Source: Gammaproteobacteria bacterium (lineage in GTDB: Bacteria; Pseudomonadota; Gammaproteobacteria; Chromatiales; Chromatiaceae). From it: 64,000 nucleotides of DNA. Position 1 is the first letter of the stretch, and every line of letters begins with the position of its first letter. Shown piece after piece: positions 11,967 through 55,525 of this stretch. Made by a program: the position numbers and the translations under genes. The notes beneath the pieces are model-generated. The model was given only the letters and a program-made list of their open reading frames with translations. It searched no databases and was not told the origin of the DNA. Where the stretch lies: assembly GCA_038144195.1 (NCBI GenBank), contig JAYQNH010000001.1, positions 39,295-103,294 on the forward strand, read 5' to 3'.

Positions 11967-12042
11967 GGGGCCATAGCTCAGCTGGGAGAGCGCAACACTG
12001 GCAGTGTTGAGGTCAGCGGTTCGATCCCGCTTGGCTCCACCA
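11967..12042 (+). tRNA. tRNA-Ala (anticodon GGC).
   Basis: GGGGCCATAGCTCAGCTGGGAGAGCGCAACACTGGCAGTGTTGAGGTCAGCGGTTCGATCCCGCTTGGCTCCACCA folds as a cloverleaf. The anticodon loop is CTGGCAG and the CCA end is encoded. Confidence 0.95.
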
Positions 12043-12064
12043 AACAATTTGCAAAAAGGTTTCT

Positions 12065-12140
12065 GTCCCGTTCATCTAGAGGCCTAGGATCCCAGCCTTT
12101 CACGCTGGTTACAGGGGTTCGACTCCCCTACGGGACGCCA
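12065..12140 (+). tRNA. tRNA-Glu (anticodon UUC).
   Basis: GTCCCGTTCATCTAGAGGCCTAGGATCCCAGCCTTTCACGCTGGTTACAGGGGTTCGACTCCCCTACGGGACGCCA is closely similar to the canonical bacterial tRNA-Glu. The anticodon loop is CTTTCAC. Confidence 0.95.
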
Positions 12141-35534: not shown

Positions 35535-36659
35535 ATGAAAAATTCAATCATGTTGGCAGCGGCTTCGGCAATTGCGCTATCAAGTGTTAACTCAGTAGCT
35601 CTGGCCCGTGATCACGTTGAGATTGTCGGTTCTTCAACGGTATATCCCTTTGCAACAGTTGTTGCAGAACAGTACGGTCGTAAATCAGGCAGCACCCCAA
35701 AAATTGAATCAACCGGTTCAGGCGGTGGCTTGAAGTTATTCTGTAATGGCATGGGTGCAAATACACCTGACATCACCAATGCATCTCGCCGTATTAAGCA
35801 ATCTGAGATAGACAAGTGTGCCAAGAACGGTATTAAGGACATTATTGAGGTTCGTATTGGATACGACGGTATCGTGGTTGCGAACTCAAAACAGGGCGCT
35901 AAGTTTGATTTGACTACAAAAGACTTAGCGTTAGCACTAGCTAAACAGGTGCCCGGTAAAGATGGCAAGTTGATTGATAACCCTTACAACAACTGGTCGG
36001 ATGTCCGTAAAGGCCTTCCAAATCTTGCAATTGAAGTATTAGGTCCACCACCATCATCTGGTACGCGTGATGCATTTGTTGAGTTGGCTTTAGAGTCTGG
36101 CCTTAAATCTTATGCTGATTTTAAAGCGTTACGTGGTTCTAAAGATGAAGCTGAAATCAAAGTCTTGATGGAAAAGCTGGGCATTCCTGCTTCTGCCTTT
36201 AATAATAAAGGTAAAAAAGTCTTTAAGAAAGTTGCGCATGCAATTCGTGAAGACGGCAAGTACATCGAAATGGGTGAGAATGACAATCTGATCATTCAGA
36301 AGTTGATTGCAAATCCAAATGCATTAGGTGTGTTTGGCTTCTCATTCCTTGATCAGAATGCGGACAAAATCCAAGGTGCCCCGATTAACGGGCAAGAGCC
36401 TACCTTTGAGGCAATTGCTGATAGCTCTTACCCCATCTCGCGTCCACTGCAGTTTTATGTAAAGAAGGCACACGTGGGTAAGATCCCAGGTATTGATGGG
36501 TTCCTAGCTGAGTTCACTTCTGAGAAAGCATTTGGTGAGGAAGGGTACTTGTCAGATAAGGGTTTGATCCCAATGCCAGCGGCAGAGCGCGAGTGTAACC
36601 GTGCGGCTGCAACCCAATTGATTCCGATGAAAGGTAATGCCTACGCGTGTGCTAAGTAA
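35535..36659 (+). CDS. pstS: Phosphate ABC transporter substrate-binding protein.
   Basis: Intact 374-aa ORF with a signal peptide and VEIVGSSTVYPFATVVAE...TGSGGG, typical of PstS-family PBPs. An RBS aaggag precedes it. Confidence 0.9.
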   Translation: MKNSIMLAAASAIALSSVNSVALARDHVEIVGSSTVYPFATVVAEQYGRKSGSTPKIESTGSGGGLKLFCNGMGANTPDITNASRRIKQSEIDKCAKNGIKDIIEVRIGYDGIVVANSKQGAKFDLTTKDLALALAKQVPGKDGKLIDNPYNNWSDVRKGLPNLAIEVLGPPPSSGTRDAFVELALESGLKSYADFKALRGSKDEAEIKVLMEKLGIPASAFNNKGKKVFKKVAHAIREDGKYIEMGENDNLIIQKLIANPNALGVFGFSFLDQNADKIQGAPINGQEPTFEAIADSSYPISRPLQFYVKKAHVGKIPGIDGFLAEFTSEKAFGEEGYLSDKGLIPMPAAERECNRAAATQLIPMKGNAYACAK

Positions 36660-36680
36660 TCTGAATTGATAATCAGTAGA

Positions 36681-36714
36681 ATGATGGTCGACCTTATCGT
36701 CGGCCATCATTTTT
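36681..36714 (+). terminator. Hairpin plus T-run between pstS and pstC (a likely partial terminator/attenuator).
   Basis: atgatggtcgac cttatc gtcggccatcat is followed by tttt. Confidence 0.55.
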
Positions 36715-36734
36715 GTGTGTAAGTAGATTTATTT

Positions 36735-38123
36735 ATGTCATTGTCCGTCTTAATTGCCTTTGTGTTGATGATTATGGCCTTGGGTTATCACTTGGGCCGT
36801 AAACGTGCGCTGGTGGCCGTTGACGGTGTCAAGGGCGTTCGGTTTTTGCACTCTTTACCGAATTACTACGGGTTATATGTGCTGATGTGGGCTGCACTGC
36901 CTGCGGTAATCGTCATGCTGATATGGGGGTTGGTGCAAGAGAGTGTCTTGACGTCAATTCTGCTGTCACACATGCCATCTGAGTTGACAGCCGTCTCTGC
37001 AGACCGACTCAGCTTGTTAGCCACAACGATTAAGAATGTAGCGCTAGGTAAAATTACTGCGGGTGAGATAACGCCTGCGATGCAAGCGGCTGCAGATGAG
37101 TATTCTCGTTATTTACAGACGGCTGAATTAGCTAAATCGGGTTTAACGCTGACGTTAGCCACGTTATTAGGCTGGGTAGCATGGCGAAAGATTAATCCAA
37201 AGATGCGTGCGCGTAATCGCGTCGAGGGGATTGTTAAAGCCTTATTAATTCTCTCATCAGCTATCGCCATCCTTACTACCGTCGGTATTGTTTTCTCAGT
37301 GCTCTTTGAATCAATTAGATTCTTTGAAAAGGTGCCATTCTTTGACTTTGTCTTTGGTCTTGAGTGGAGTCCACAAACCGCAATCCGAGCAGATCAAGTC
37401 GGCTCTGAAGGTTTGTTTGGTTCAGTACCGCTATTCGCCGGAACGATGTTGATCTCATTGATTGCGATGACGGTTGCTGTACCCATTGGTTTGATGTCAG
37501 CGATTTATCTTGCTGAATATGCAGGACCAAAGGTACGTGCTTACGCAAAACCGATACTTGAGATCTTGGCAGGTATTCCAACGGTCGTTTATGGCTTCTT
37601 TGCTGCGCTTACAGTGGCGCCAGCGATTCGTGATTTCGGTGTGGATCTGGGCTTAAGTGTTTCGTCTGAAAGTGCTTTAGCCGCTGGTTTGGTAATGGGC
37701 GTGATGATTATTCCGTTTATCTCATCATTATCTGATGACGTCATTAATGCCGTGCCACAATCTTTGCGAGATGCTGCGTATGGTTTGGGCTCGACTCGAT
37801 CGGAGACGATAAAACAGGTCATTATCCCTGCGGCATTGCCAGGCATTATGGGCGGTGTTCTTTTAGCAGTTTCTCGCGCTATTGGTGAAACGATGATCGT
37901 GGTGATGGCAGCTGGCTTGAGCGCCAACCTAACCGCGAATCCTTTAGAAGCAGTAACAACGGTGACAGTTCAGATCGTTACGTTGCTGACCGGTGACCAA
38001 GAGTTCGATAGTGCTAAGACCTTGGCAGCGTTTGCCTTGGGATTGATGTTGTTTGTTACGACCTTGGCATTAAATATTGTGGCGTTACGTATCGTGCGTA
38101 AATACCGTGAGCAATATGATTAA
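36735..38123 (+). CDS. pstC: Phosphate ABC transporter permease PstC (long form).
   Basis: Intact 462-aa ORF with the EAA-loop region LRDAAYGLGSTRSETIKQVIIPAALPG. Confidence 0.9.
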   Translation: MSLSVLIAFVLMIMALGYHLGRKRALVAVDGVKGVRFLHSLPNYYGLYVLMWAALPAVIVMLIWGLVQESVLTSILLSHMPSELTAVSADRLSLLATTIKNVALGKITAGEITPAMQAAADEYSRYLQTAELAKSGLTLTLATLLGWVAWRKINPKMRARNRVEGIVKALLILSSAIAILTTVGIVFSVLFESIRFFEKVPFFDFVFGLEWSPQTAIRADQVGSEGLFGSVPLFAGTMLISLIAMTVAVPIGLMSAIYLAEYAGPKVRAYAKPILEILAGIPTVVYGFFAALTVAPAIRDFGVDLGLSVSSESALAAGLVMGVMIIPFISSLSDDVINAVPQSLRDAAYGLGSTRSETIKQVIIPAALPGIMGGVLLAVSRAIGETMIVVMAAGLSANLTANPLEAVTTVTVQIVTLLTGDQEFDSAKTLAAFALGLMLFVTTLALNIVALRIVRKYREQYD

Positions 38124-38132
38124 GAGGCCGAT

Positions 38133-39443
38133 ATGAGTGATTCAATAGATAGTTTAGCGGCCTCAACTAAAGCGATTCATAAAGTTGAGCATTCACTTAA
38201 GCGTCGTCGCGTGCAAGAGCAGCGATTTAAGCGACTGGGGTTGTTTGCTGTATTACTGGGCTTGTCGTTTGTGGCTTTGCTTTTCATCAACATTGTAAGT
38301 AAAGGCTACAGTGCCTTTGTTGCTACGCACATCGCGATTGAGGTTAACTTTTCGCAAGAGGTTCTCGATCCAGCTGGTTCCCGTGACCTAAAAGTCATTG
38401 GTAATGCGGATTATCGACAGTTGTATCGTGAACCCTTACGAGCATTATTTCCTGATGTTTCAGGTCGTAAAGACAAACGTGAGTTATATCGGATGATTAG
38501 CTCATCAGCAGATTTTAGTTTGCGCGATATGGTGTTAGCTGATTCAGCCTTGATTGGACCAAACCAAAACAATTTGGCTTTTAGCTGATGATGAAATCGA
38601 TATGGCATTCAAAGGCACTTTGTCGCGAGAACTGCCGGAGTCCGAAAGGCCTGTGAGCGACAAAGAGTTTGCGTGGATTGATCAACTTAAATCACAAGGG
38701 AAAATTGACATTCTTTTTCAACTGGGGCTTCTTTACCAATGGTGATTCTCGTGAGCCAGAGCAGGCCGGTATTGGCGGTGCGATTGCAGGCTCATTTTAT
38801 ACCTTGCTTATTACTTTGATGCTGTCCTTCCCAATTGGTGTGGCTGCTGCGGTTTATCTTGAGGAGTTTGCACCAACCAATAAATGGACTGACATGATCG
38901 AGGTAAATATCAATAACCTCGCGGCTGTGCCATCGATTGTGTTTGGCTTGCTCGGTTTGGCGATGTTTATCAACTTCTTTGGTATGCCGCGTTCGGCGCC
39001 TTTGGTTGGTGGCTTAGTGCTGACCTTAATGACATTGCCAACCATCATTATTGCGAGTCGTGCAGCACTTAAATCTGTGCCGCCTTCAATTCGAGAGGCG
39101 GCTTTGGGGATTAGGTGCTTCACGTATGCAAACGGTGACTCACCATGTGTTGCCTTTAGCCTTGCCCGGAATGTTGACCGGCACCATTATCGGTATGGCG
39201 CAAGCGTTAGGTGAGAGCGCGCCTTTGCTGATGATCGGTATGGTGGCTTTCATTGTTGATATTCCATCAGGCCCGATGGATCCAGCGACTGTATTGCCGG
39301 TTCAGGTGTTTTTGTGGGCGGATAGTCCTGAGCGAGCATTTGTTGAGAAAACATCTGCAGCGATTATGGTGCTGCTCGGCTTCTTGATTTTAATGAATTT
39401 AATTGCGGTATTACTGCGACGTCGTTTTGAGCGTCGTTGGTAA
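38133..39443 (+). CDS. pstA: Phosphate ABC transporter permease PstA (long form). Three frame breaks.
   Basis: ORFs 38133..38588, 38554..38745, 38669..39214 and 39051..39443 are colinear pieces. The breaks lie near 38560, 38712 and 39112. The EAA loop is [27 protein letters not shown]. Confidence 0.85.
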
Positions 39444-40280
39444 GTCATACGCCTGTTGAGGATAGTCCTTTGGATAAAGAATTAACGTCTGACTTCAAAA
39501 CAATCGGAAATGTTCGGAGTAAAAAGCCGCGCATGAGTGCTACCGATGTGAATGTCTATTACGGTGATAAGCATGCCATTCAAAACGTTTCACTGGATGT
39601 GGGTGAGGGTGAAGTCTTGGCAATGATCGGTCCGTCTGGCTGTGGTAAGTCAACCTTCTTGCGAACGCTAAACCGTATGAATGACACCATTGATATCTGT
39701 CGAGTGACAGGTGATATTCGTTTGGATGGTGAAGATATCTACGATGATGAAACGGACCCTGTGTTGCTGCGCGCACGCGTGGGCATGGTGTTTCAAAAGC
39801 CAAATCCATTCCCAAAATCGATCTACGACAATATTGCCTATGGGCCACGTATTCATGGCTTAGCGTCGAACAACGAAGAACTCGACGAAATTGTTGAAAG
39901 CTGTTTGAAAAAAGCCGGTTTATGGAAAGAGGTTAAAGATCGTTTGGATGCGCCGGGCACAGGGCTATCGGGTGGTCAGCAGCAGCGTTTATGTATCGCC
40001 CGCGCTATTGCGGTTTCGCCAGAAGTGATTTTGATGGATGAGCCATGTTCAGCGCTCGATCCAATAGCAACAGCGAAGGTCGAAGAGTTGATTGATGAGC
40101 TTCGTCAAAACTACAGCATTGCAATTGTTACTCACTCAATGCAACAAGCAGCGCGAGTGTCACAAAAAACAGCTTATTTTCATTTAGGGACATTTGGTTG
40201 AGGTGGGTGAGACCGAGCAGATCTTTACCAACCCTCGCCATTCATTAACAGAAGACTACATTACGGGGCGTTTCGGATAA
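39437..40280 (+). CDS. pstB: Phosphate ABC transporter ATPase. One frame break near the 3' end, and the start codon is uncertain.
   Basis: Motifs are GPSGCGKST and [15 protein letters not shown]. An extra a near 40190 is present, and the shifted frame gives [29 protein letters not shown], ending at 40280. Confidence 0.9.
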
Positions 40281-40284
40281 GCCA

Positions 40285-40989
40285 ATGGCATCGACACACG
40301 TTTTAGTTGTTGAAGATGAATCATCAGTACGAGAGTTGCTGGGTTCAACGCTGAGTACAGCTGGCTTTCAGGTGAGCTTTGCACCTGATGGTTTGAGTGC
40401 GCGTAATTGGTTGGACGAAAACGTACCCGATATTGCATTGATTGATTGGATGATGCCGGGTTTGTCTGGTTTGGATCTGACGCACTGGATGAAGCGCGAC
40501 GAGCGCTTAGCGGATATTCCTATCATTATGTTAACGGCGCGTGATGGCGAAGATTATAAAGTTCAAGGTCTAGAAGCGGGTGTTGATGATTATGTCACCA
40601 AGCCTTTCTCAACCCGCGAGTTAGTCGCTCGTGTTAAAGCGGTCATGCGTCGGAGCGGTCAGGAAGAAGATGTCTTGCTTCATTTTGATAATGGTTTGGA
40701 ATTGGACCATGTTCAGCATCGAGTGACCTACCAGTCGCGTCCGATTTATATTGGTCCGACAGAATTTAAGCTGCTTAAATTTTTTATGAGTCACCCTGAA
40801 CGTGTGTATAGCCGAACACAGTTGCTTGATCTCGTTTGGGGTCGAAATGTCTATATTGAGGAGCGTACGGTAGATGTTCATATTCGTCGTTTACGTAAAG
40901 CGCTCTCTGTAGAACACATTGAAGAACTTATCCAAACCGTACGTGGCGTAGGTTACCGCTTCTCTGAAAAACAGGATGGTGCAGCATGA
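40285..40989 (+). CDS. phoB: Phosphate regulon response regulator.
   Basis: Intact ORF with a receiver domain (VLVVEDE, IDWMMPGLSG, KPF) and an OmpR-type winged helix (TVDVHIRRLRKAL, VRGVGYRF). Confidence 0.9.
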   Translation: MASTHVLVVEDESSVRELLGSTLSTAGFQVSFAPDGLSARNWLDENVPDIALIDWMMPGLSGLDLTHWMKRDERLADIPIIMLTARDGEDYKVQGLEAGVDDYVTKPFSTRELVARVKAVMRRSGQEEDVLLHFDNGLELDHVQHRVTYQSRPIYIGPTEFKLLKFFMSHPERVYSRTQLLDLVWGRNVYIEERTVDVHIRRLRKALSVEHIEELIQTVRGVGYRFSEKQDGAA

Positions 40990-42280
40990 TGCGTAACTGG
41001 GTCTCAGAAGAGTTCACGCGATTATTTTGGGTGCTTTGCGTTGGTGGTGTTTATGGGCTGGCTACTTGGCTATTCTTTGATCGGATTGTTTATTGCTGTT
41101 GTCGCTTACCTTGCTTATGTGGTTAATCAGCTCATTCGAGTGAATCGATGGATTTCGCAACCTAAACGATATGATATCCCTGCCGGCTTTGGTTTATGGG
41201 GCGCTGTTTATACAAATGTTAAGCGCTTAAAGAGCCGGTCAAAGAAACGTGAGCGATATCTGAAAAAACGTCTTGCGGAATATCAGGCGCCAGCGTTAGC
41301 ACTACCAGATGCCGCAATAGCACTCAATCAACGGGGTGAGATCCGATGGATGAATGGAGCGGCGGAAAATTTATTTAACCTGAATGCTAAGTCGGATGTG
41401 GGTGAGAACTTTGCCAATTTGGTTCGATTGCCGCAGTTAGTGGATTATTTAAAGACAGCTGATTATTCAGAAGATCTACAGGTCACTTTGCCGGGGCTGA
41501 TTGAGAAAACCTTGCTTATTCGTGTAGCGAAATATGGAAAAGGGCAGTTAGTGCTATTGGCTCAGGATATTTCAGCTCGCATTCGCGCTGAACAATCGAA
41601 GCGTGATTTTGTTGCAAATGTGTCACATGAGTTACGTACGCCGCTGACGGTCATCAGTGGCTACTTAGAAAACATGATCGATTCTGGTGAGATCCCAGAG
41701 TCGTTTGAGCGTCCATTAACCTTAATGGAGCAACAATCTCTTCGGATGCGTCACATCATCGAAGATCTCCTTACGCTTGCCAAACTCGATGGCGCTAAAG
41801 CTGATATGGAGGAAGTAATTGATGTGCCGGCATTGTGTGAGAAATCTGTCGCTGAGGCGCGTGCCATATCGGGTGAGCATGAATTTAAGTTAGCCATGCT
41901 TACGCAACAGAAAATGTATGGTGATGTTAAGCAGATTCATATGTTGCTATCGAATCTATTAACTAATGCGATTAAATATTCTGGCGCAGAAGGATTGATA
42001 ACGATTTCTTGGCAAAAAGAACACCAGGGTTATCGTCTTTCAGTGACTGATTCGGGTGAAGGTATTGCGCCTCAACATTTGTCGCGCCTTAACCGAGCGT
42101 TTTTATCGTGTGGATAAAGACCGGTCACGTGACCAAGGCGGCACAGGTTTGGGTTTAGCTATTGTTGACTCAATTCTGCAGCAGCATGATGCACATCTTA
42201 CCGTTGAAAGTGAAATTGGAGTTGGCAGTACCTTTAATTGCCACTTCCCAGAATCTCGTGGTGTTACAACTAATACCTAA
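40986..42280 (+). CDS. phoR: Phosphate regulon sensor histidine kinase. Two frame breaks.
   Basis: The ATG overlaps the phoB stop (ATGA). The H-box is [10 protein letters not shown], the N-box is [13 protein letters not shown] and the G-box is [10 protein letters not shown]. The breaks lie near 41040 and 42100. Confidence 0.85.
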
Positions 42281-42304
42281 TTAATAAGGCATACAGGATT
42301 TATT

Positions 42305-43018
42305 ATGAATGGAATAACAGATCACACGTCGTCATCTTTTAATTCTGACATAGAGCATGTTCGTTCTTCGGTTCTAGAAATGGGCGGGCTGATTGAGTCG
42401 CAATTAGATAAAGCAATAACGGCTTTACGCGACTCCAATATTGCCTTGGCAGAAGAGGTTGTTGTTAATGACGCACAAATCAATCGTTACGATGTAATCA
42501 TTGATGAAGGCTGTACGCGAATTTTTGCACTGCGTGCGCCAGCAGCAGGTGACTTACGCTTGGTTCAAACTGTATTAAGAACGACGACAGACCTTGAGCG
42601 TATTGGGGACGAGATAAAGCGAGTTGCCAAGATGGCTATTAAAAACTCAAAAGGTGCAGCAGATGCGAGCTTGTATAACCGAGTTGAGCATTTAGGTAAT
42701 TCAGTAAAAGCGACCCTTAATCGTGCATTAGATGCCTTTGCGCGTATGGATGTTAATGCGGCGATTGAGGTTGCAGGTGAAGATAAACGAATTGATCAAG
42801 AATACGAAAGTATGATGCGTCAGTTAATGACCTACATGATGGAGGATCCTCGTTCGATTCCACGTATCCTCGATATTATGTGGGCAGCGCGTTCTCTAGA
42901 GCGGATTGGCGATCGTTGTCAAAATATCTGCGAATACATTATCTACTTCGTTAAAGGTAAAGACGTTCGCCACACCAGCTTGGATAGCATTCGTGCTGAA
43001 TTTGGCGATGATGCCTAA
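42305..43018 (+). CDS. phoU: Phosphate signalling complex protein PhoU.
   Basis: Intact 237-aa ORF with two PhoU repeats (DLERIGDE and SLERIGDRCQNICE). Confidence 0.9.
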   Translation: MNGITDHTSSSFNSDIEHVRSSVLEMGGLIESQLDKAITALRDSNIALAEEVVVNDAQINRYDVIIDEGCTRIFALRAPAAGDLRLVQTVLRTTTDLERIGDEIKRVAKMAIKNSKGAADASLYNRVEHLGNSVKATLNRALDAFARMDVNAAIEVAGEDKRIDQEYESMMRQLMTYMMEDPRSIPRILDIMWAARSLERIGDRCQNICEYIIYFVKGKDVRHTSLDSIRAEFGDDA

Positions 43019-43077
43019 ACCGATTGGGTTGATTGCTGACTAGATCGTGTTGCGGTGAGGCTAGCTGACGTTTGGTT

Positions 43078-43099
43078 TTGTCATATTCTTGTCATTTGA
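43078..43099 (+). promoter_or_regulatory. Candidate Pho box upstream of the small ORF at 43139.
   Basis: TTGTCATattcTTGTCATttga has two direct heptamers with an 11-bp period. A -10-like tatttt follows about 7 nt downstream. Confidence 0.55.
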
Positions 43100-43138
43100 T
43101 GCAGCTATTTTGAATCAAATATCCGATCAGGTGAGAAA

Positions 43139-43324
43139 ATGACAGTAAAAACACATAACTCTGATGCCAAATTGCAGAGAAAAGATCTCAATGAAGAAGC
43201 TGTGTATCTAGAAGAGCGTATCAAGCAAATGGGCTTTGAAGGCGATTGTGCCTATGAGCGTGCAATGTATACCTTCTATCTGGATCGTCTTTGCGAGCTT
43301 CGTTCTCAAATGACCGTTAATTGA
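43139..43324 (+). CDS. Small hypothetical protein (61 aa), possibly Pho-regulated.
   Basis: Intact ORF with ggtgag before the ATG. The sequence is MTVKTHNSDAKLQRKDLNEEAVYLEERIKQMGFEGDCAYERAMYTFYLDRLCELRSQMTVN. I recognise no family. Confidence 0.5.
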   Translation: MTVKTHNSDAKLQRKDLNEEAVYLEERIKQMGFEGDCAYERAMYTFYLDRLCELRSQMTVN

Positions 43325-43363
43325 TATCAATAGATATTGCGGCTATCCATGTCGGATAGAAAA

Positions 43364-44477
43364 CTAACTAAGACCTATATTGATTAAAGCTTCAATGAGT
43401 TTTCTTTCATCGTATAGCTCATTGTTGGAGCCTCGAAGATCCCTATCAATCAGTTGAATGTGATTCTCTGACAAATAATCGGTGAAGGCATTGTCGATAT
43501 CGGATCGTAGGCTGCTATCAGTCAGCACAATATCAATCGCTTTACTTTCTTTGCGCTCAGACAGGTCTTTGTTGATGGTTTGATTGAGCAGTTCAATTTG
43601 TTCGATCAAACTGGTGTCATGGAGCTCAGGGTCAATGCCAAGATTTGGGATGAATACCTTGAGGTTATTGCTGGCGTGAATCGCATTGCCCACACCCTTA
43701 GGTAGTAGGTTTGCGATCACGCTTGAGAAGAAGCTGCCTGGTGGGAAAACAATCAGATCCGCATCACTGATTAAGGCATGATTTTTTGCATCGAGTGTTG
43801 AGCTGGGGCCAGAAAGCGTTAAGTCGATTATCTTCTGGCCTAAGGGGCGCGTTTCTTTTGCGGTGATCTTGTGTTGGCCGCTCACTGTTGTGCCATCGAG
43901 CAGTGTGGCGATGAGCTCTAGATCGTCATCGATTGTTGTACGCACAATGCCAAGCGAATGAACAACTTCGCTGATTTGATCAACCACATGGTGTCAAGGT
44001 GTGTTGATTATTGAGATACCCGCCTGTGATCACCAAGTTACCGACACTGGCGCCACGGTAATCAAAGTCATCAGGCACCTGATCAAGGAACGCTCGTAGG
44101 TTGTTTTCAATCAGTTGTTTGACGGTGCCTGAGGTGACCTCAATTAAGGGATGCTCACCTGATTGTAGTTTCTCAACGAGTGATTTAAGCGTTGCTTGCG
44201 ATTGATCGGTGGGTAAGCGATAACGGAAAAGCGCTACCGCCTCTGGATGGCCTGCTAATGAATCATCAGCAATCGCCATCAGGCGTGCTCGCAAATCACC
44301 CACGGCAGGCATATTGAAAGCTTTGCGAAGTTTTGCCGAGCTGCCGCCTGAGTCGAATGGAGTTAGTAGGTGAATGCTGTTGTGGGTGTATTTGGTGAGT
44401 AGTGATGAAGTCTTGTCCAGCGCTGAGCCGCCTGAGAAAAAAGGAGCGAAGGTCCATTGGCTGGATCCGCGAGACAT
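43364..44477 (-). CDS. CofD/YvcK-superfamily (UPF0052, 2-phospho-L-lactate-transferase-like) protein. One frame break.
   Basis: ORFs 43980..44477 and 43364..43987. The N-terminus has FFSGGSAL...LTPFDSGGSSAKLR, and the core LIVFPPGSFFSSVIANLLPKGVGNAI...KVFIPNLG parallels the YvcK/CofD GPGSLYTSI.PNLL region. The break lies near 43985. Confidence 0.75.
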
Positions 44478-44499
44478 TGCTCGATGTGACTATGCTCAC

Positions 44500-45742
44500 T
44501 CATGCATCACGCTCATCGATAAAGACTTCAGCGGCATGTGGGTGCGAGAGAAAATCCTTGGGGCTGGCGCTAGCGCCATAAGCACCTGATTGCATGACCG
44601 CAACCACATCGCCAACCTGCGCCTGTCCGATAGTATGTTTAGCCGCCAGTATGTCTAACGGTGTACAGAGAGGGCCGGTGATACTGACTTGAGTTCGATC
44701 ACCTTGGTTGACATGCAATGGGTTAACCACAGGGTAGTTTTTACGAATGATCTGACCGAGGTTACCGCTTGCCGCTAAGTGATGATGCATGCCGCCATCG
44801 CAAATCCAGAAAGTTTCACCGCGTGAGGTTTTGCTATCGAGGATGCGTGTGAGATATACGCCGGCTTCACCGACCAAATAGCGACCAAGCTCAATCACGA
44901 TATCTACATTAGGCTGCAGTGCGGCAAAGTCATCAATGACTTCACTGAGTTCTGCGCCAAGCGTTCGGATATCTAAGGGTTGCTCGCCAGGGAAGTAGGG
45001 AATACCAAAGCCGCCGCCTAGATTGATCTCAGATAGACAAAGATTAAAGGTATCGATCAGTTCAAGCGCGAGATCTAGGCTAGCTTTTTGGGCATCAACG
45101 ATAGCTTGCGCATCAAGACACTGCGAGCCTGCGTAGATGTGTAGACCATCGATAACGAGCTTATGTGCTTGCGCTGCATGTAACACATCATCGAGTTGGT
45201 CTTTATCAATGCCAAAGGGTTTAGCGCTGCCGCCCATCGCCATGCCTGACCCTTTGAGATCAAAGTCTGGATTGATGCGAATCGAAAGACGCGGCGGCTG
45301 ATGACCTTCGGCAAGTGATGCAATGCGATTGAGTTCGCCTAACGATTCAACATTGATGCGAATGCCAGCGTCGATAGCAGCGAGCAATTCTTCATCGCGC
45401 TTCCCGGTCCTGCAAAGCTGATGTCTTGCGGGTTGATGTTTGTTTTCAGCGCGAGTTGAAGTTCGCCCTGTGAGGCGATATCAAAGCCATCCACATGCTG
45501 CGCCATAAACTGCACTAGTTGAGCATGTGGATTCGCTTTTAAGGCGTAATGTAGCTTGATGTCTTCAGGTAGATGTTCGCGTAACGTACGAATCGTATTT
45601 GCAATAACAGCAGCGTCATACAGATAACACGGCGTGCTTAACCCTTGTTGCAGGTGTTCGTAACCGACTTACCCCCAATGATGAGTTGATCATTGCTGAT
45701 CGGGAATTGGGTGATCGCTGAATGTGTGGGCATTTCGCTCAT
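44500..45742 (-). CDS. Fold-type III PLP-dependent decarboxylase (Orn/DAP/Arg decarboxylase family, DAP-decarboxylase-like). Two frame breaks.
   Basis: ATG at 45742. The PLP lysine motif HYALKANP is recovered in the shifted frame. Other motifs are GGGFGIPY, CDGGMHH and GPLCTPLD. The breaks lie near 45665 and near 45395 (GPGK/RDEELL, aaa read as aa). Confidence 0.8.
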
Positions 45743-45749
45743 GGCGAGA

Positions 45750-47203
45750 TTATCGCAAGGGATACTGTGCTTTTGCGAGCGCGCGATCTAATTTGCCGTT
45801 GGCGCTAAGCGGTAGGGACGGATGTTGCTCAATAAAGCTAGGCTGCATATAATTCGGAAGCTCGTGTACAAGGTGCTGTTTAAGCGCGTCCACAGAAAGA
45901 TCACCTTGGTATAGCAGAATGATATTTTCGCCAGCGTTAAAGCAAACAGCTTGCTCAATACCTTTCAATGCGAGTGCGGGCAGTTCAATCTCTTGAGGAC
46001 TGATGCGATAGCCGGAGACCTTCATCATCTCGTCATCGCGACCTATAAAGGTAAACAGTCCATCGGCTGAGCGTTTAACCGTATCGCCTGAACGTACATA
46101 GTGAATGCCATCCTTGTCGCTACCAAAGCGTTGTTCAGTAAGATCCGTGTGATTCCAATAACCTAAAGCCACTGTGTCGCCAGCGTGAATAAGCTCACCC
46201 GCATGATCATCAGCGCAATCATTACCTTGCGCATCAATTACACGTAATGTGGCGCCGGGAATCGCGATACCCATACTGTCGGGATGAGTGAGTCGTAAAT
46301 CGGCGGGCAGGTAGGTTGAGCGAAACGCTTCGGTTAGGCCGTACATCAAGATGATGTCAGTGGAAGGCAGAGCTTCATGCAAAATCTGTTAGACGGGCTC
46401 GGCAAGATGACCACCAGAGTTGGTGATATATCGCAGATGTTGTTTTGCATCTGTTGACCAATCGCACCGGGTGAGTTGTTGCCAAATCGGTGGCACGCCA
46501 GCTACGCCAGTTACCTTGTAGGTGTCGATGGCTTTGATGATCTCGCAAGGTAACAGATAGTCGAATAACACCAGCTCGGCACCGATAAGTAAGCTGCTGA
46601 TCAGTTGGTTAAGACCATAGTCAAAACTCAGTGGTAAGACGCCAAGTAACACATCATCTGAAGTGTTATTTAAATATTGAGTAACCGCTTCTGCGCCAGC
46701 AATGAGATTACGATCGCTGAGCATCACGCCCTTCGGTAAGCCGGTACTTCCTGAGGTATATAAAAGACAAGACAGGTTGTCTGGCGAGATGAGTGAGCTC
46801 TTGAGCGTAAGGATTTCTGTTTGATCGATTGCGTATCGACCTGAAGTAGTAAGCCTATATCCGCTTCGTTGATATCAACACGTTGTGAATGAGTGACCAG
46901 TAGCTTAGCTTGCGTGTCACGAAGGATGTGATTGAGCTGCGGGATTTTGAGTAGGGGGTTGATGGGTACGAATACCGCACCTATCGCATTGGCTGCTAAT
47001 AGATACACCACCAGATCGATATTCTTCTGCAGATATAGCGCAACGCGATCCCCTTTGATGACACCAAGCTCACCCAATTGTTGTGAGGCTTGATTAACGC
47101 GATCGAGTAGCTCCGGGTAAGTTAGTGCGTCGTTTTTATGTCTTAACGCAACACGAGTAGATGCGCGTTCAGCTTGCTGATGAAGTAAATCAAACGGGTG
47201 CAT
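45750..47203 (-). CDS. Adenylate-forming enzyme (AMP-dependent synthetase/ligase, ANL superfamily). One frame break plus one in-frame TAA.
   Basis: ORFs 46724..47203, 46389..46727 and 45750..46382. The core motif (L/Y)TSGSTGLPKGVMLSDRNL spans the break near 46727. Other motifs are YGLTEA, SGDTV...GRDDEMMKVSGYRISPQEIE and the terminal SANGKLDR. The in-frame TAA is at 46389-46391. Confidence 0.8.
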
Positions 47204-47206
47204 TGT

Positions 47207-48007
47207 TTATGCGATGAGATAGAAGATAAAAGCGCCAAGTGCCAAGCGATACAGCACAAAGGGCCACATGCCAATGCGTTCAATGAACTTAAGGAAGTAG
47301 TGAATGCATAAATAGGCTGAGATGGCAGATAACACCACGCCAAGAACAATCGCGTTCCAATCGACGGCTTCGGTTGTTTCAAGCAGGTCAAAGGTGATCA
47401 GTGCTGATGAGGCAAGCACGGTAGGGATCGCCAGCAAGAACGAGAAGCGAGAAGCAGCTTCACGCGTCAAACCAACCCATAAACCTGCGGTCATGGTGAT
47501 GCCGGAGCGAGAGGTGCCTGGAATAAGAGCGAGAATTTGCGCAAGACCAACAATGATTGCGTCTTTGAGGGTGATGCTAGTGAGGTCGCGTTCGCGCTTT
47601 GCACTCCAATCCGCTTGCCATAACACCAAGCCAAAGAAAATGGTGGCAGCACCAATGATCCAAGGCTCACGGAACTGACTTTCAATCAGGCTTTTTAACA
47701 GTAAGCCTGCGATTACTACCGGGATTACGCCGACGATCACTGCCCAGCCTAGACGTGCTTCAGGGTTGCTTGGTGCGCTTGGCGTTAGGGCGCGGAACCA
47801 GCCATTAAAAATAGCAACTACATCGCGCCAAAAGTAAGCCACGATGGCAATCAGCGATCCAAAGTGAACGGCCACATCTAAACTCAAACCTTGATCGGCA
47901 AAGCCAAAGATATGTGGCGCCAAGATGAGGTGGCCAGAGCTAGAGATGGGTAAGAACTCGGTTAGACCTTGAATAACCGAAAGAATGAAGACGCTGAGTA
48001 TGTCCAT
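47207..48007 (-). CDS. uppP: Undecaprenyl-diphosphatase.
   Basis: Intact 266-aa ORF with the BacA family motifs GLTEFLPISSSGHL and PGTSRSGITM. Its stop lies 3 nt before the ligase ATG. Confidence 0.9.
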   Translation of the reverse strand: MDILSVFILSVIQGLTEFLPISSSGHLILAPHIFGFADQGLSLDVAVHFGSLIAIVAYFWRDVVAIFNGWFRALTPSAPSNPEARLGWAVIVGVIPVVIAGLLLKSLIESQFREPWIIGAATIFFGLVLWQADWSAKRERDLTSITLKDAIIVGLAQILALIPGTSRSGITMTAGLWVGLTREAASRFSFLLAIPTVLASSALITFDLLETTEAVDWNAIVLGVVLSAISAYLCIHYFLKFIERIGMWPFVLYRLALGAFIFYLIA

Positions 48008-48056
48008 AAAGGGTTTCTATCCTTAACGCGTATCGCCCGACGATGATGTCCTTGGC

Positions 48057-48685
48057 TTATGTGATCGTATGATATGCCAATTTAGGTGCTGAAGCTTGTC
48101 GCGGCCAGGCTACACAGCCCATCAGATCGCTGGGTAACTTAAGCTGGGCATGCTGAAGCTCAATGTCAGGATCGAGTTGATCGAAGATGCCTATGCCGAT
48201 GCACTTGTGACGTGCTTCGAGTTGGGTCCATTCTTCATAAAAACGCGATCTGAATCCTCGGCAGCTTCTATACGGGCAATGGCATCTTCAGGCATAACGC
48301 GTTTAGCGATCGCCAAGCGATTGGCTTGCGGGCGAAAACGTTCGATATCCACCCCCAAGGGTAGTTGGCTTATAGCAAGTAGGCCGTAACGACCGGTGTG
48401 TGACAGGTTGAATTCAAAGTTTCGCTCAGCCAAGTAGGGCTTACCGCCATCTTCAATCCAAATCGGCACTTCAGATGGAGCTAGATGCAGCAGCTGACCT
48501 AAAATTGACCGCATAACGGTACGCATCACGGCATAATGATTCGATCGATGTTTCTCGGCCCGTTGTCGCTCGTCATCACTCAGTACATTCAGGTCAGCGT
48601 TCTGCTGATCGAGATCGATCTGATACAGGTCGATCCACTGATCTGAGGGTGGTGAGAAGGCTTGTCTGGGATTATCGGACATCAA
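48057..48685 (-). CDS. Sfp-type 4'-phosphopantetheinyl transferase. One frame break.
   Basis: Motifs are GGKPYL, FNLSHTG and GVDIER. After the shift at the A5 run 48239-48243 (T6 expected on the coding strand), the frame gives FYEEWTQLEARHKCIGIG. Confidence 0.75.
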
Positions 48686-48729
48686 AATTTACTTAAGAAT
48701 AAATCTTAACCTATTGTTTTTATTTAATT

Positions 48730-50456
48730 ATGTCGATCAAGCTCATTCAGCGTCGCGAGCCTAAAGCGATCTCCAGTGAATTATCCGGTTTGTCGCCCTT
48801 GCTGCAACGCTTGTATGCCAATCGCGGCGTTGAGCTGGCGTCTGAGATTGATGCGTCGTTAGCACAGCTTATCCCTGTGGAGTCGATGGGTGGCTTAAGT
48901 GAAGCACTAGAGGTCTTGGTGCCAGCCGTCGAACAAGGTCAGCGCATTTTGATCGTGGGTGACTTTGATGCTGATGGCGCGACCAGTTGCGCGCTCGGCA
49001 TGTTGGCGTTTCGTGCTTTGGGTCATCAGGCTATCGATTTTCTGGTGCCGAATCGCTTTGAGTACGGCTATGGCTTAACGCCAGAGATTGTTGAGCTCGC
49101 CAAAACGCGTCAGCCTAATCTGATTATTACCGTGGATAACGGGATCGCGAGCCTTGCGGGTGTGGCGGCTGCTAATGAGCTGCCGGTATCCCGGTGATCG
49201 TGACTGATCACCATTTACCGGGAGATGAGTTGCCCGACGCGGCCGCCATTGTGAATCCCAATGCACCGGGGAACGATTTTCCTTCAAAGGCACTCGCAGG
49301 GGTGGGTGTGTTGTTTTATGTGTTACTTGGTTTACGCAGTGCTTTGAGAGTTAAGGGTTGGTTTGAGCAGCAATCGATCGAAGAGCCGAACATGGCGCAA
49401 TTTCTCGATATCGTTGCGCTAGGTACGGTTGCCGATGTGGTTCCCTTAGATGCCAACAATCGCCGTTTAGTGCATCACGGTCTGCACCGTATTCGAGCGG
49501 GTCATGCACGTCCGGGTATCGCAGCCTTACTCGAAATCGCGCGCCGTGATTACCGTCGGGTTAAAGCCAGTGATATGGGCTTCTTTGTTGGTCCGCGTTT
49601 GAACGCAGCCGGTCGCTTAGATGACATGACTTTAGGTATTCAATGTTTGATCGAAGACGATCCGCTTCGCGCACGTGAGCTGGCAACTCGATTGGATATT
49701 TGGAATAAACAACGCCGTGAAATTGAATCAGACATGCAGGCCGATGCTGAGCATATGTTGGCTGATTTACCGCAAAGCGATGCGGCATTAACGGGTGTGT
49801 GTTTATTCAATCCGGACTGGCATCAGGGTGTGATCGGTATATTGGCCTCACGCGTAAAAGAAGAGCTACATCGTCCCGTGGTGATCTTTGCGAAAGGCGA
49901 TGAGGGTTGGATCAAGGGCTCAGCGCGTTCTATCCCTGGTTTTCATATCCGGGATGCCTTGGATGTGATCTCCAAGCGATATCCAGATCTTTTCGATAAG
50001 TTTGGCGGCCATGCGATGGCGGCGGGCATGACGATACGAGAAAAAGATTTTGAGCAGTTTGCCCAAGCGTTTGATCAAGTGGCACGTGAGCAGTTATCTG
50101 ATGATCAATTGCAGGCAGTGTTGCTCAGTGATGGTGAGGTGCCTGCAGATCAATTGTCTTTAGATATGGCGGCAGAGCTGACCCAAGCGGGCCCTTGGGG
50201 GCAGAATTTTCCAGAGCCGTTATTTGATGGTGAGTTTGATGTGGTCAGTGGTCGGATTGTGGGAGAGCATCATTGGAAGTTGGTGCTGCGCCCGAGTGGT
50301 AGTCAGCAGACCATCGATGCGATTGCGTTTAAGACCGTGGAGCAATTTCCGCAGCTGCCGGACAAACTCAAAATTGCATATCAGCTCGATATTAATGAAT
50401 GGCAGGGGCGACAATCGTTACAATTGCGCGTCGACTATATGGAAGCGGTAGCGTGA
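48730..50456 (+). CDS. recJ: Single-stranded-DNA-specific exonuclease RecJ. One frame break.
   Basis: ORFs 48730..49197 and 49194..50456. Motifs are the DHH motif VTDHH, GDFDADGATS and GGHAMAAG. The break lies near 49188 in a C-run. Confidence 0.9.
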
Positions 50457-54834: not shown

Positions 54835-55525
54835 ATGAAATTTCGAATTTCACGATACAACCCAGATGTAGATAGCGAACCATACATGCAGGAGTTCGAT
54901 ATCGAAGTATCTCGCGGCATGATGTTGCGCGATGCTTTGTTAGAGGTGAAGCGTCAGGACGAAACCTTCAATTTCCGTCATTCTTGTGGCGAGGGTGTGT
55001 GGTTCTGATGGCGTAAACGTTAACGGCACGAATAAGTTAGCGTGTGTTACAGCCATCGCAGACTTAAAAGAGCCTGTTGAGGTTCGTCCATTCCCAGGTC
55101 GCCCCATCATCCGTGACTTGGTTGTCGATATGAGTCAGTTCTATCAGCAATACAAAGCGGTTGACCCATGGTTGGTGCGTGAAGATCCAATGCCTGAGCA
55201 AGAGATTCTTCAATCGCCAGAAGATCGCGATAAATTGGATGGTCTGTACGAGTGCATCATGTGTGGTTGTTGTTCAACCTCATGTCCTTCGTTCTGGTGG
55301 AACCCTGAGAAGTTCCACGGTCCACAGGCCTTGTTAAGCGCATGGCGCTTCTTGGCGGATAGTCGTGACCAAGCGACTGATGAGCGTTTGGATAAGCTTG
55401 AAGGCCCTTACAAGCTGTTCCGTTGTCACACCATCATGAACTGCGTTGAGGTTTGTCCAAAAGGCTTGAATCCAACGCAAGCGATCGGCAACATCAAGAA
55501 TTTGATGTTGAAGAAAGCAATCTAA
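54835..55525 (+). CDS. sdhB: Succinate dehydrogenase iron-sulfur subunit. One frame break.
   Basis: aaggag lies 7 nt before the ATG at 54835. Motifs are SCGEGV/CGSDG, CIMCGCCSTSCP and CHTIMNCVEVCPKGLNP. The break lies near 54997, where a gt unit appears to be lost from a (gt)n tract. Confidence 0.9.

Follow-up and report, generated by a model that had tools for sequence, protein, structure and literature searches.

Detached exosortase-A-type ligase and decarboxylase genes next to an orphan GAK-family CofD-like gene in a gammaproteobacterium

The closest described systems in which a ligase and a decarboxylase act together on an amino acid are the modules BtrJ/I/K, FlvN/L/O and CtaD/E/F, where glutamate or aspartate is ligated through its side chain to an acyl carrier protein (ACP) and is then decarboxylated at the alpha position (PMC11350588). 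Three curated NCBIfam families are also pertinent: TIGR03098 ("acyl-CoA ligase, exosortase A system-associated"), TIGR03099 ("PLP decarboxylase, exosortase A system-associated", in which PLP is pyridoxal 5'-phosphate) and TIGR04357, the CofD-like protein of the GAK system. All three are "hypothetical equivalogs" without experimental function. No papers were found under "GAK system" or under the exosortase-A-associated family names, and among the papers found on PEP-CTERM/EpsH and floc clusters no title or abstract pointed to a functional study of the ligase-decarboxylase pair. Here we describe a cassette of three genes, one from each of these families, in a stretch of gammaproteobacterial DNA (assembly GCA_038144195.1, contig JAYQNH010000001.1, positions 39,295-103,294 of the forward strand), which we call the window; it was analysed over its full 64 kb, and positions are counted from its first nucleotide.

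An earlier note on this sequence had regarded the three genes as a candidate for one undescribed three-step pathway and knew of no characterised pathway that combined them. It is true that no published experimental pathway was found, but all three proteins already fall within curated NCBIfam models; they are ordinary members of known families, and the trio as a new three-enzyme pathway does not hold up. The region is instead a lineage-specific junction, where a detached exosortase-A-type ligase-decarboxylase pair meets an orphan member of the GAK system. That it joins two evolutionarily independent modules, and not the parts of one pathway, we hold with a probability of roughly 0.7. Module A would be an old co-directional string comprising a 4'-phosphopantetheinyl transferase (PPTase), uppP, the ligase and the decarboxylase. 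Module B would be the CofD-like gene, a GAK-family member with a YvcK-like fold predicted to bind nucleotides or nucleotide sugars, whose six usual partners are absent.

Gene neighbourhood of the cassette

Gene calls were taken from a six-frame translation and a listing of open reading frames (ORFs), and lesions were placed by alignment with two intact relatives, a metagenome contig from the Joint Genome Institute (L001) and a Sedimenticolaceae metagenome-assembled genome (MAG; L012), both 91% identical to the window at the DNA level. The three genes are co-directional on the minus strand at 43364-47203 and carry the motifs on which the earlier family calls were based. Each is split into pieces in the window; the intact homologues of the ligase, decarboxylase and CofD-like protein have 483, 411 and 379 amino acids (aa), respectively. 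The trio is real, but the string is longer than had been supposed, since the PPTase gene and uppP lie directly upstream of the ligase and belong to it. The ligase and decarboxylase genes are indeed separated by 7 nucleotides (nt; ligase stop at 45750-45752, decarboxylase ATG at 45742). The gap of 22 nt reported between the decarboxylase and CofD-like genes, on the other hand, is a 4-nt overlap (ATGA; CofD-like ATG at 44503, decarboxylase stop at 44500-44502), and the earlier start at 44477 is artefactual, lying in a frame shifted by a 1-nt deletion at about 44445. The stop of uppP lies 3 nt before the ligase start. In close relatives (contigs L001-L004, L012 and L094) the order PPTase-uppP-ligase-decarboxylase-CofD-like is kept, convergent with phoU-phoR-phoB-pstBACS.

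Two surveys were made of the wider neighbourhood. One genome per species was scanned with a CofD-like alignment, giving 80 loci, and metagenomes were scanned with a decarboxylase alignment, giving 80 loci to which two syntenic loci (L092 and L093) were added, for a total of 82. By tblastn, the ligase and decarboxylase occurred together within 10 kb of the CofD-like gene in a single species-level locus of the 80, that of L012, which belongs to the window's own lineage. Conversely, a CofD-like gene was found near the decarboxylase at one of 82 loci (L094), again of the same lineage, and GAK genes were found near the decarboxylase at none of the 82. The three genes thus largely fail to co-occur in other genomes, and the single pathway proposed for them is not borne out. 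Among the 62 CofD-like loci with at least 8 kb of upstream sequence, the adjacent region held at least five of the six GAK partner genes in 28, some of them in six and none in 28; stand-alone copies occur in unrelated contexts in Halomonas and elsewhere.

The sister lineage is represented by two NCBI MAGs (L005 and L006). Its UppP, ligase and decarboxylase are 96%, 91% and 90% identical to those of L001, while its CofD-like protein is 58% identical and has 406 aa. Between the decarboxylase and CofD-like genes stand six oppositely oriented genes which together with the latter make up a complete GAK system: an amphi-Trp protein (TIGR04354), a metallophosphoesterase, a histidine phosphatase, an HprK-related kinase B (TIGR04355), the GAK ATP-grasp enzyme (TIGR04356) and an APH-like kinase. 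All six are absent from the window, from L001-L004 and from L012.

More distant relatives keep the first module but lack the CofD-like gene. In L092 and L093, whose decarboxylase is 55% identical, sdhCDAB-DarP-recJ is followed by PPTase-uppP-ligase-decarboxylase and gltX, without a CofD-like gene. In L176 (uppP 72% identical) the order is recJ, PPTase, epimerase, uppP, a trypsin-like gene, ligase and decarboxylase, and then genes for an AsnB-like protein, a polysaccharide deacetylase and a Wzy_C-type protein before phoU-phoR. In Thiosocius teredinicola (uppP 66% identical) recJ, an epimerase gene and uppP are followed, after other genes, by ligase, decarboxylase and unrelated small genes, and here too the CofD-like gene is lacking. 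The slot between decarboxylase and phoU is therefore variable, being filled by polysaccharide genes, by a GAK cluster, by a lone CofD-like gene or by nothing.

Measures of divergence change abruptly where the decarboxylase meets the CofD-like gene. Between L001 and L002, uppP, ligase and decarboxylase have a synonymous divergence (dS) of 0.39-0.55 and the CofD-like gene one of 1.11; between L001 and L005 the former three lie at 0.5-0.7, while the CofD-like gene and phoU have reached saturation. The last decarboxylase codons and the first 27 or so CofD-like codons differ between the trio and sister lineages exactly at the junction. These would be the end-points of a rearrangement, most simply the loss of the six GAK genes, that may have fused the two genes into the ATGA overlap. 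Within the CofD-like gene itself (L001:4314-5453; L002:7315-8448), the proteins of L001 and L002 are 75% identical and their C-terminal thirds only 30-48%, while flanking proteins are 93-100% identical. This C-terminal divergence is accompanied by raised synonymous divergence and points to a local recombination hot spot or a mosaic gene rather than to simple fast evolution.

Elsewhere the decarboxylase has a recurrent setting. The ligase is directly upstream of it in 53-62 related loci, and its other usual neighbours are an AsnB-like amidotransferase, two alpha/beta hydrolases, an ACP (26 loci), glycosyltransferases and PrsK/PrsR; this neighbourhood is an exosortase A polysaccharide locus. The three proteins encoded after the decarboxylase in L176 (L176:10650-14759; AsnB-like amidotransferase, polysaccharide deacetylase and Wzy_C/DUF5935 protein) are all typical of such loci. 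The contents of this slot suggest that an exopolysaccharide locus once stood here and has eroded, with the ligase-decarboxylase pair of the present family at its edge.

In its complete form the GAK cluster has the same seven genes throughout, the six partners and a divergently transcribed CofD-like gene (L005:3917-11221; 28 of 62 genome loci among L013-L091). Its GAK ATP-grasp enzyme is RimK/MptN-like, and clusters were found in Halomonas/Vreelandella, Marinobacterium, Marinobacter and others. Neither the three cassette proteins nor the six GAK proteins match any defence-system model in PADLOC. As no literature and no PADLOC match could be found for it, the GAK cluster is an uncharacterised system in its own right.

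Encoded proteins and proposed mechanism

The earlier assignments to Pfam-level families were correct for all three proteins, namely PF00501 (ANL ligase), PF02784 with PF00278, and PF01933 (CofD/YvcK superfamily). After correction of the frame, the best NCBIfam family for the ligase, by a factor of two, is TIGR03098 (520 bits; intact L001 homologue, 522; cutoff, 592.35), and the L092 ligase exceeds the cutoff with 636 bits. The best full-length matches in the PDB are adenylation (A) domains of nonribosomal peptide synthetases (NRPS). When the search was confined to the substrate-binding core (A4-A6), VinN (3WV4) was the best match, with 74.7 bits against 51 for the next. The alignment with 3WV4 is free of gaps and pairs SFDYGL with SWDFGL, TNSGG with TNSAA, and TEAFRS with TECKRI. 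The ligase holds the amino-group-binding FD motif; of the VinN residues, D230, S299 and R331 are kept, F231 is replaced with Tyr and Lys330 with Phe, and the beta13-beta14 loop has the same shortened length. These are features that let VinN bind 3-methyl-aspartate or aspartate as a beta-amino acid and activate its side-chain carboxylate (PMC11253843).

The frame-corrected decarboxylase exceeds the TIGR03099 cutoff of 478.45 with 536 bits, and its relative in L092 scores 595. In the PDB search BtrK (2J66/7RU7) came first, aligned over residues 29-405, nearly the whole protein, with 271 bits. It is followed by 6KNH (189 bits) as the next distinct protein, which was deposited as a probable diaminopimelate (DAP) decarboxylase and which we take to be SbnH, a citryl-amino-acid decarboxylase. 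A true DAP decarboxylase, Aquifex LysA (2P3E), gave 163 bits. The active-site motif is CTPLD in the window protein, CTPED in BtrK and CETGD in Aquifex LysA. BtrK, the closest characterised homologue, is the carrier-protein-dependent L-glutamyl-[BtrI ACP] decarboxylase. In intact relatives, the pair has a ratio of nonsynonymous to synonymous divergence (dN/dS) of 0.06-0.10.

By homology, an acidic, Asp- or Glu-like amino acid would be adenylated by the ligase at the side-chain carboxylate and loaded by it onto a phosphopantetheinyl carrier protein, and the PLP decarboxylase would then remove the alpha-carboxylate to leave a carrier-bound beta-alanyl- or gamma-aminobutyric acid (GABA)-type omega-aminoacyl thioester. 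Substrate and product are here predicted from the sequences. That the operon begins with a PPTase gene and that canonical loci hold an ACP would fit with a carrier-bound product. The context suggests that this unit decorates an undecaprenyl-phosphate-dependent product of the envelope or an exopolysaccharide, because the pair adjoins uppP and is elsewhere found among polysaccharide genes; such decoration, with the ACP and the two alpha/beta hydrolases, is the presumed job of the pair in exosortase A/PEP-CTERM polysaccharide loci. The earlier proposal of carboxylate activation and amine formation leading to an amide-linked or envelope product is, by analogy with BtrK and VinN, consistent with this scheme.

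For the CofD-like protein (frame-corrected), the TIGR04357 model gave 413 bits, above the cutoff of 340 (L005 homologue, 477), and the YvcK/GlmR model TIGR01826 gave 112 bits, below its cutoff of 196. Intact homologues on L001-L004, L012 and L094 have 377-379 aa and are 71-94% identical. An AlphaFold2 model built on a 50-sequence alignment had a mean predicted local distance difference test (pLDDT) of 90.8 and a predicted template modelling score (pTM) of 0.90. With Foldseek TM-scores normalised by target length, its best YvcK/UPF0052 structures were 2PPV, 2O2Z and 2HZB (0.82-0.83; 20-22% identity), while CofD/FbiA structures gave 0.55-0.69 at 10-12% identity, and no CofD/FbiA chain was found by sequence search at E<=0.01. 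The N-terminal loop reads FFSGGSA where YvcK has GGGTG. As the protein appears nearer to YvcK/UPF0052 in structure, and CofD is out of reach of the sequence search, phospholactyl-type transfer is not supported by sequence or model, and the phosphotransfer step previously suggested by analogy with CofD is weakened accordingly; the safest statement is a predicted nucleotide- or nucleotide-sugar-binding role. In the trio lineage the protein has some 27 fewer N-terminal residues and a highly variable C-terminal third. The intact relatives nonetheless keep all family-invariant residues, with a dN/dS of 0.12-0.19 that indicates purifying selection. Probably, then, it retains a function independent of the GAK genes, as it would in genomes where it stands alone (roughly 45%).

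Several observations weigh against this reading of two modules, or at least against parts of it. The ligase sits below the TIGR03098 cutoff. Representatives of the exosortase A locus neighbours (ACP, hydrolases 1 and 2, AsnB-like, EpsH and PrsK/PrsR) were not found by tblastn in the window, L001, L002, L005, L012 or L092, and a six-frame scan for the D-S-[LMIVF] motif, together with tblastn using the ACP of a canonical locus, revealed no convincing ACP-like ORF in the window. ACP, hydrolase and exosortase genes were found neither in the 64-kb window nor in the syntenic loci, which is the weak point of the proposed mechanism. With regard to the junction, an independent acquisition of a CofD-like-only allele could replace the loss of the GAK genes, and both the ATGA overlap and the purifying selection on the CofD-like gene would also be expected if the gene was recruited into the operon.

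Interrupted reading frames and competing explanations

The interruptions noticed earlier in the ORFs are real features of the assembly and could be located against L001 and L012. They comprise 1-nt insertions at 46813 and 46800 and a CAA to TAA nonsense change at codon 271 (46389-46391) in the ligase gene, 1-nt deletions at about 45658 and 45402 in the decarboxylase gene, and, in the CofD-like gene, the deletion at about 44445 and a 1-nt insertion at about 43993. The PPTase gene is frameshifted by a 1-nt deletion at about 48242 (the L001 homologue is intact, with 208 aa and PF01648). Only uppP, full length in one frame and 97% identical to that of L001, is uninterrupted among the genes of the string.

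It is possible, though we do not favour it, that the cassette is a decaying relic made up of true pseudogenes and not the victim of assembly error. Over 5.4 kb, alignment with the relatives shows eight coding indels of a single base and one nonsense substitution. Counted as frame changes, the 5.4-kb cassette has six and one nonsense codon, compared with about seven frame changes in 14.3 kb of calibrated flanks, an excess with P ~ 0.02 in a rough Poisson test, and the majority of the indels lie outside homopolymers. Against decay, core genes are broken in a like style (pstA, pstB, phoR, recJ and sdhB), and the cassette showed neither large deletions nor insertion-sequence elements. Moreover, the indel-corrected window genes give a dN/dS of 0.07-0.12 against L001 for all five genes of the string, the same as that of the intact L012; the lesions are consequently very recent or artefactual. 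In detail, pstA (38133-39443) is frameshifted three times, and pstB (39437-40277), phoR (41041-42280), recJ (48730-50456, a 2-nt insertion at 49177) and sdhB (54835-55522) once each, while pstS, pstC, phoB, phoU, uppP, DarP and sdhA are intact. With core genes beyond the cassette affected as well, the disruption of frames appears to extend past it to the genome as a whole, whether through errors in assembly or through genome decay. A heuristic based on ORF adjacency, with which frameshifts were counted over the whole window, was too noisy for quantitative use.

Among the functional alternatives, the pair might act on free small molecules without a carrier, in the manner of the citryl-amino-acid decarboxylases of siderophore pathways (FslC), and yield a soluble amide-linked amine. 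The lack of an ACP gene in the window and the syntenic loci would agree with this, and FslC-type models and the structure of an N-citrylornithine decarboxylase (7KH2) do match the decarboxylase weakly; 6KNH, if it is SbnH, would point the same way. The match to BtrK is far higher, however, and the ligase, an NRPS-type, VinN-like A domain, does not belong to the NRPS-independent siderophore (NIS) synthetases. With a PPTase at the head of the operon and an adjacent ACP in canonical members of the family, we consider a carrier-free reaction unlikely.

That the trio acts in one undescribed three-step pathway, with the CofD-like protein recruited to the pair after loss of the GAK genes, for example to join the amine product to an acceptor that is phosphorylated or activated by a nucleotide, we judge improbable. 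Such a link is favoured by the ATGA overlap, which the window shares with L001 and L002, and by the gene order, which is unchanged in L003, L004 and L012, as well as by the intactness, the selective constraint and the conserved invariant residues of the CofD-like protein in the relatives. The arrangement is nevertheless confined to one narrow lineage in both surveys; six oppositely oriented genes separate the two units in the sister lineage, more distant relatives hold PPTase-uppP-ligase-decarboxylase without the CofD-like gene, dS is discontinuous at the junction of the two genes, and elsewhere the CofD-like gene often stands alone, in a variety of unrelated contexts. A more specific variant appears more doubtful still, in which the orphan CofD-like gene, translationally coupled to the decarboxylase after GAK loss, was co-opted into the PPTase-uppP-ligase-decarboxylase operon to give a new lineage-specific pathway, in which the omega-aminoacyl unit would be joined to an envelope precursor (a nucleotide sugar or one linked to undecaprenyl phosphate).

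The possibility that housekeeping genes are merely adjacent here, for which the earlier note gave lysA and yvcK as examples and to which a fatty-acid CoA ligase gene can be added, has next to nothing in its favour and was rejected, as the weaker matches to the models for lysA (TIGR01048, 254 bits), for YvcK/GlmR (112 bits) and for long-chain fatty-acid CoA ligases all miss the curated cutoffs (297.9, 196, and 476 or more) while the specific families score about twice as high, the C-E-(S/T)-G-D motif of DAP decarboxylases is replaced by CTPLD, and the ligase has the FD motif and a VinN-like pocket.

Turning to the surroundings of the cassette (Table 1), the small conserved ORF between the CofD-like gene and phoU is absent from L002, and Pfam and NCBIfam gave no match to it. 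DNA identity of the window with L001 and L012 is about 91% from the PPTase gene through the start of phoU. A breakpoint lies at about 42446 inside phoU, beyond which nucleotide identity is about 75% over the pho/pst region (35535-43018, pstSCAB-phoB-phoR-phoU) and the proteins are 61-87% identical; the same region is 97-100% identical between L001 and L002. The phosphate regulon in the window looks like an allelic replacement by recombination. At gathering thresholds, Rfam returned only two tRNAs in the window, far from the cassette; these are tRNA-Ala(GGC) and tRNA-Glu(TTC), in tandem on the plus strand at 11967-12140, and they are also the sole ARAGORN matches. A scan of 42900-48900 for promoters and terminators gave fewer matches than shuffled sequence and was uninformative.

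Table 1. Genes of the string and adjoining features in the window
Feature	Position	Strand	Basis
PPTase, Sfp/EntD-type 4'-phosphopantetheinyl transferase, first gene of the string	48057..48685	-	PF22624 and HetI/AcpT-type NCBIfam matches
UppP (BacA), undecaprenyl-diphosphate phosphatase	47207..48007	-	NF001393, 369 bits (cutoff 284)
Ligase, probable VinN-like amino-acid adenylating enzyme, TIGR03098 type	45750..47203	-	TIGR03098 best match; VinN-like core
Decarboxylase, BtrK-like fold-III PLP enzyme, TIGR03099	44500..45742	-	TIGR03099 above cutoff; BtrK nearest
CofD-like, orphan "GAK system CofD-like protein", predicted YvcK-like fold	43364..44503	-	TIGR04357 above cutoff; Foldseek
Conserved 61-aa ORF between CofD-like gene and phoU, outside both modules	43139..43324	+	Gene call in L001; 87% identical in L012
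phoU, running towards the cassette, at the far border of the variable slot	42305..43018	+	ORF listing; alignment to relatives

Comparison with known systems

The ligase-decarboxylase pair is present in very many environmental Proteobacteria, and a concrete, testable chemistry can be proposed for it. By analogy with its nearest characterised relatives, VinN and BtrK, the pair may convert Asp or Glu into a carrier-bound unit of the beta-alanyl or GABA type, which would probably decorate an exopolysaccharide. The lineage also offers a natural dissection of the two systems, in that the pair is under purifying selection without a polysaccharide locus and the CofD-like gene persists without its GAK partners; because each module persists in this way, each probably serves some function independently. 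Both points hold beyond the damaged copy in the window, which is not the best place to study either.

With YvcK/GlmR (UPF0052) and CofD/FbiA, the CofD-like protein has the PF01933 fold in common. It differs from the former in scoring below the YvcK cutoff and in having FFSGGSA in place of GGGTG, and from the latter in its low identity (10-12%); no F420 genes were noted near it. The aminoacyl-carrier-protein decarboxylation modules of butirosin (BtrJ/BtrI/BtrK), vicenistatin (VinN/VinL/VinO) and fluvirucin (FlvN/FlvL/FlvO), as well as CtaD/E/F, resemble the pair in the decarboxylase (BtrK) and in the ligase pocket (VinN). In the window, in contrast, there is no polyketide, NRPS or aminoglycoside context, no carrier protein was found in cis, and an envelope polysaccharide is predicted as acceptor in place of an antibiotic scaffold.

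The GAK system (TIGR04356, TIGR04354, TIGR04355 and TIGR04357) differs in that the window is without its six partner genes and that the CofD-like protein of the window is about 27 N-terminal residues shorter and variable in its C-terminal third. It is alike in that this protein passes the TIGR04357 cutoff and that its nearest relatives outside its own clade reside in complete GAK clusters in the same chromosomal slot. Finally, with respect to the exosortase A pair TIGR03098/TIGR03099, the window copy lies in a PPTase-uppP string beside recJ and the pho regulon, exosortase, PEP-CTERM, ACP, hydrolase and AsnB-like genes were not found in the window, and the ligase of this lineage is shorter by about 30-45 aa and below the family cutoff. 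These are, however, the best-scoring families for both window proteins, the ligase gene stands immediately upstream of the decarboxylase gene as it does there, and the catalytic motifs are conserved.

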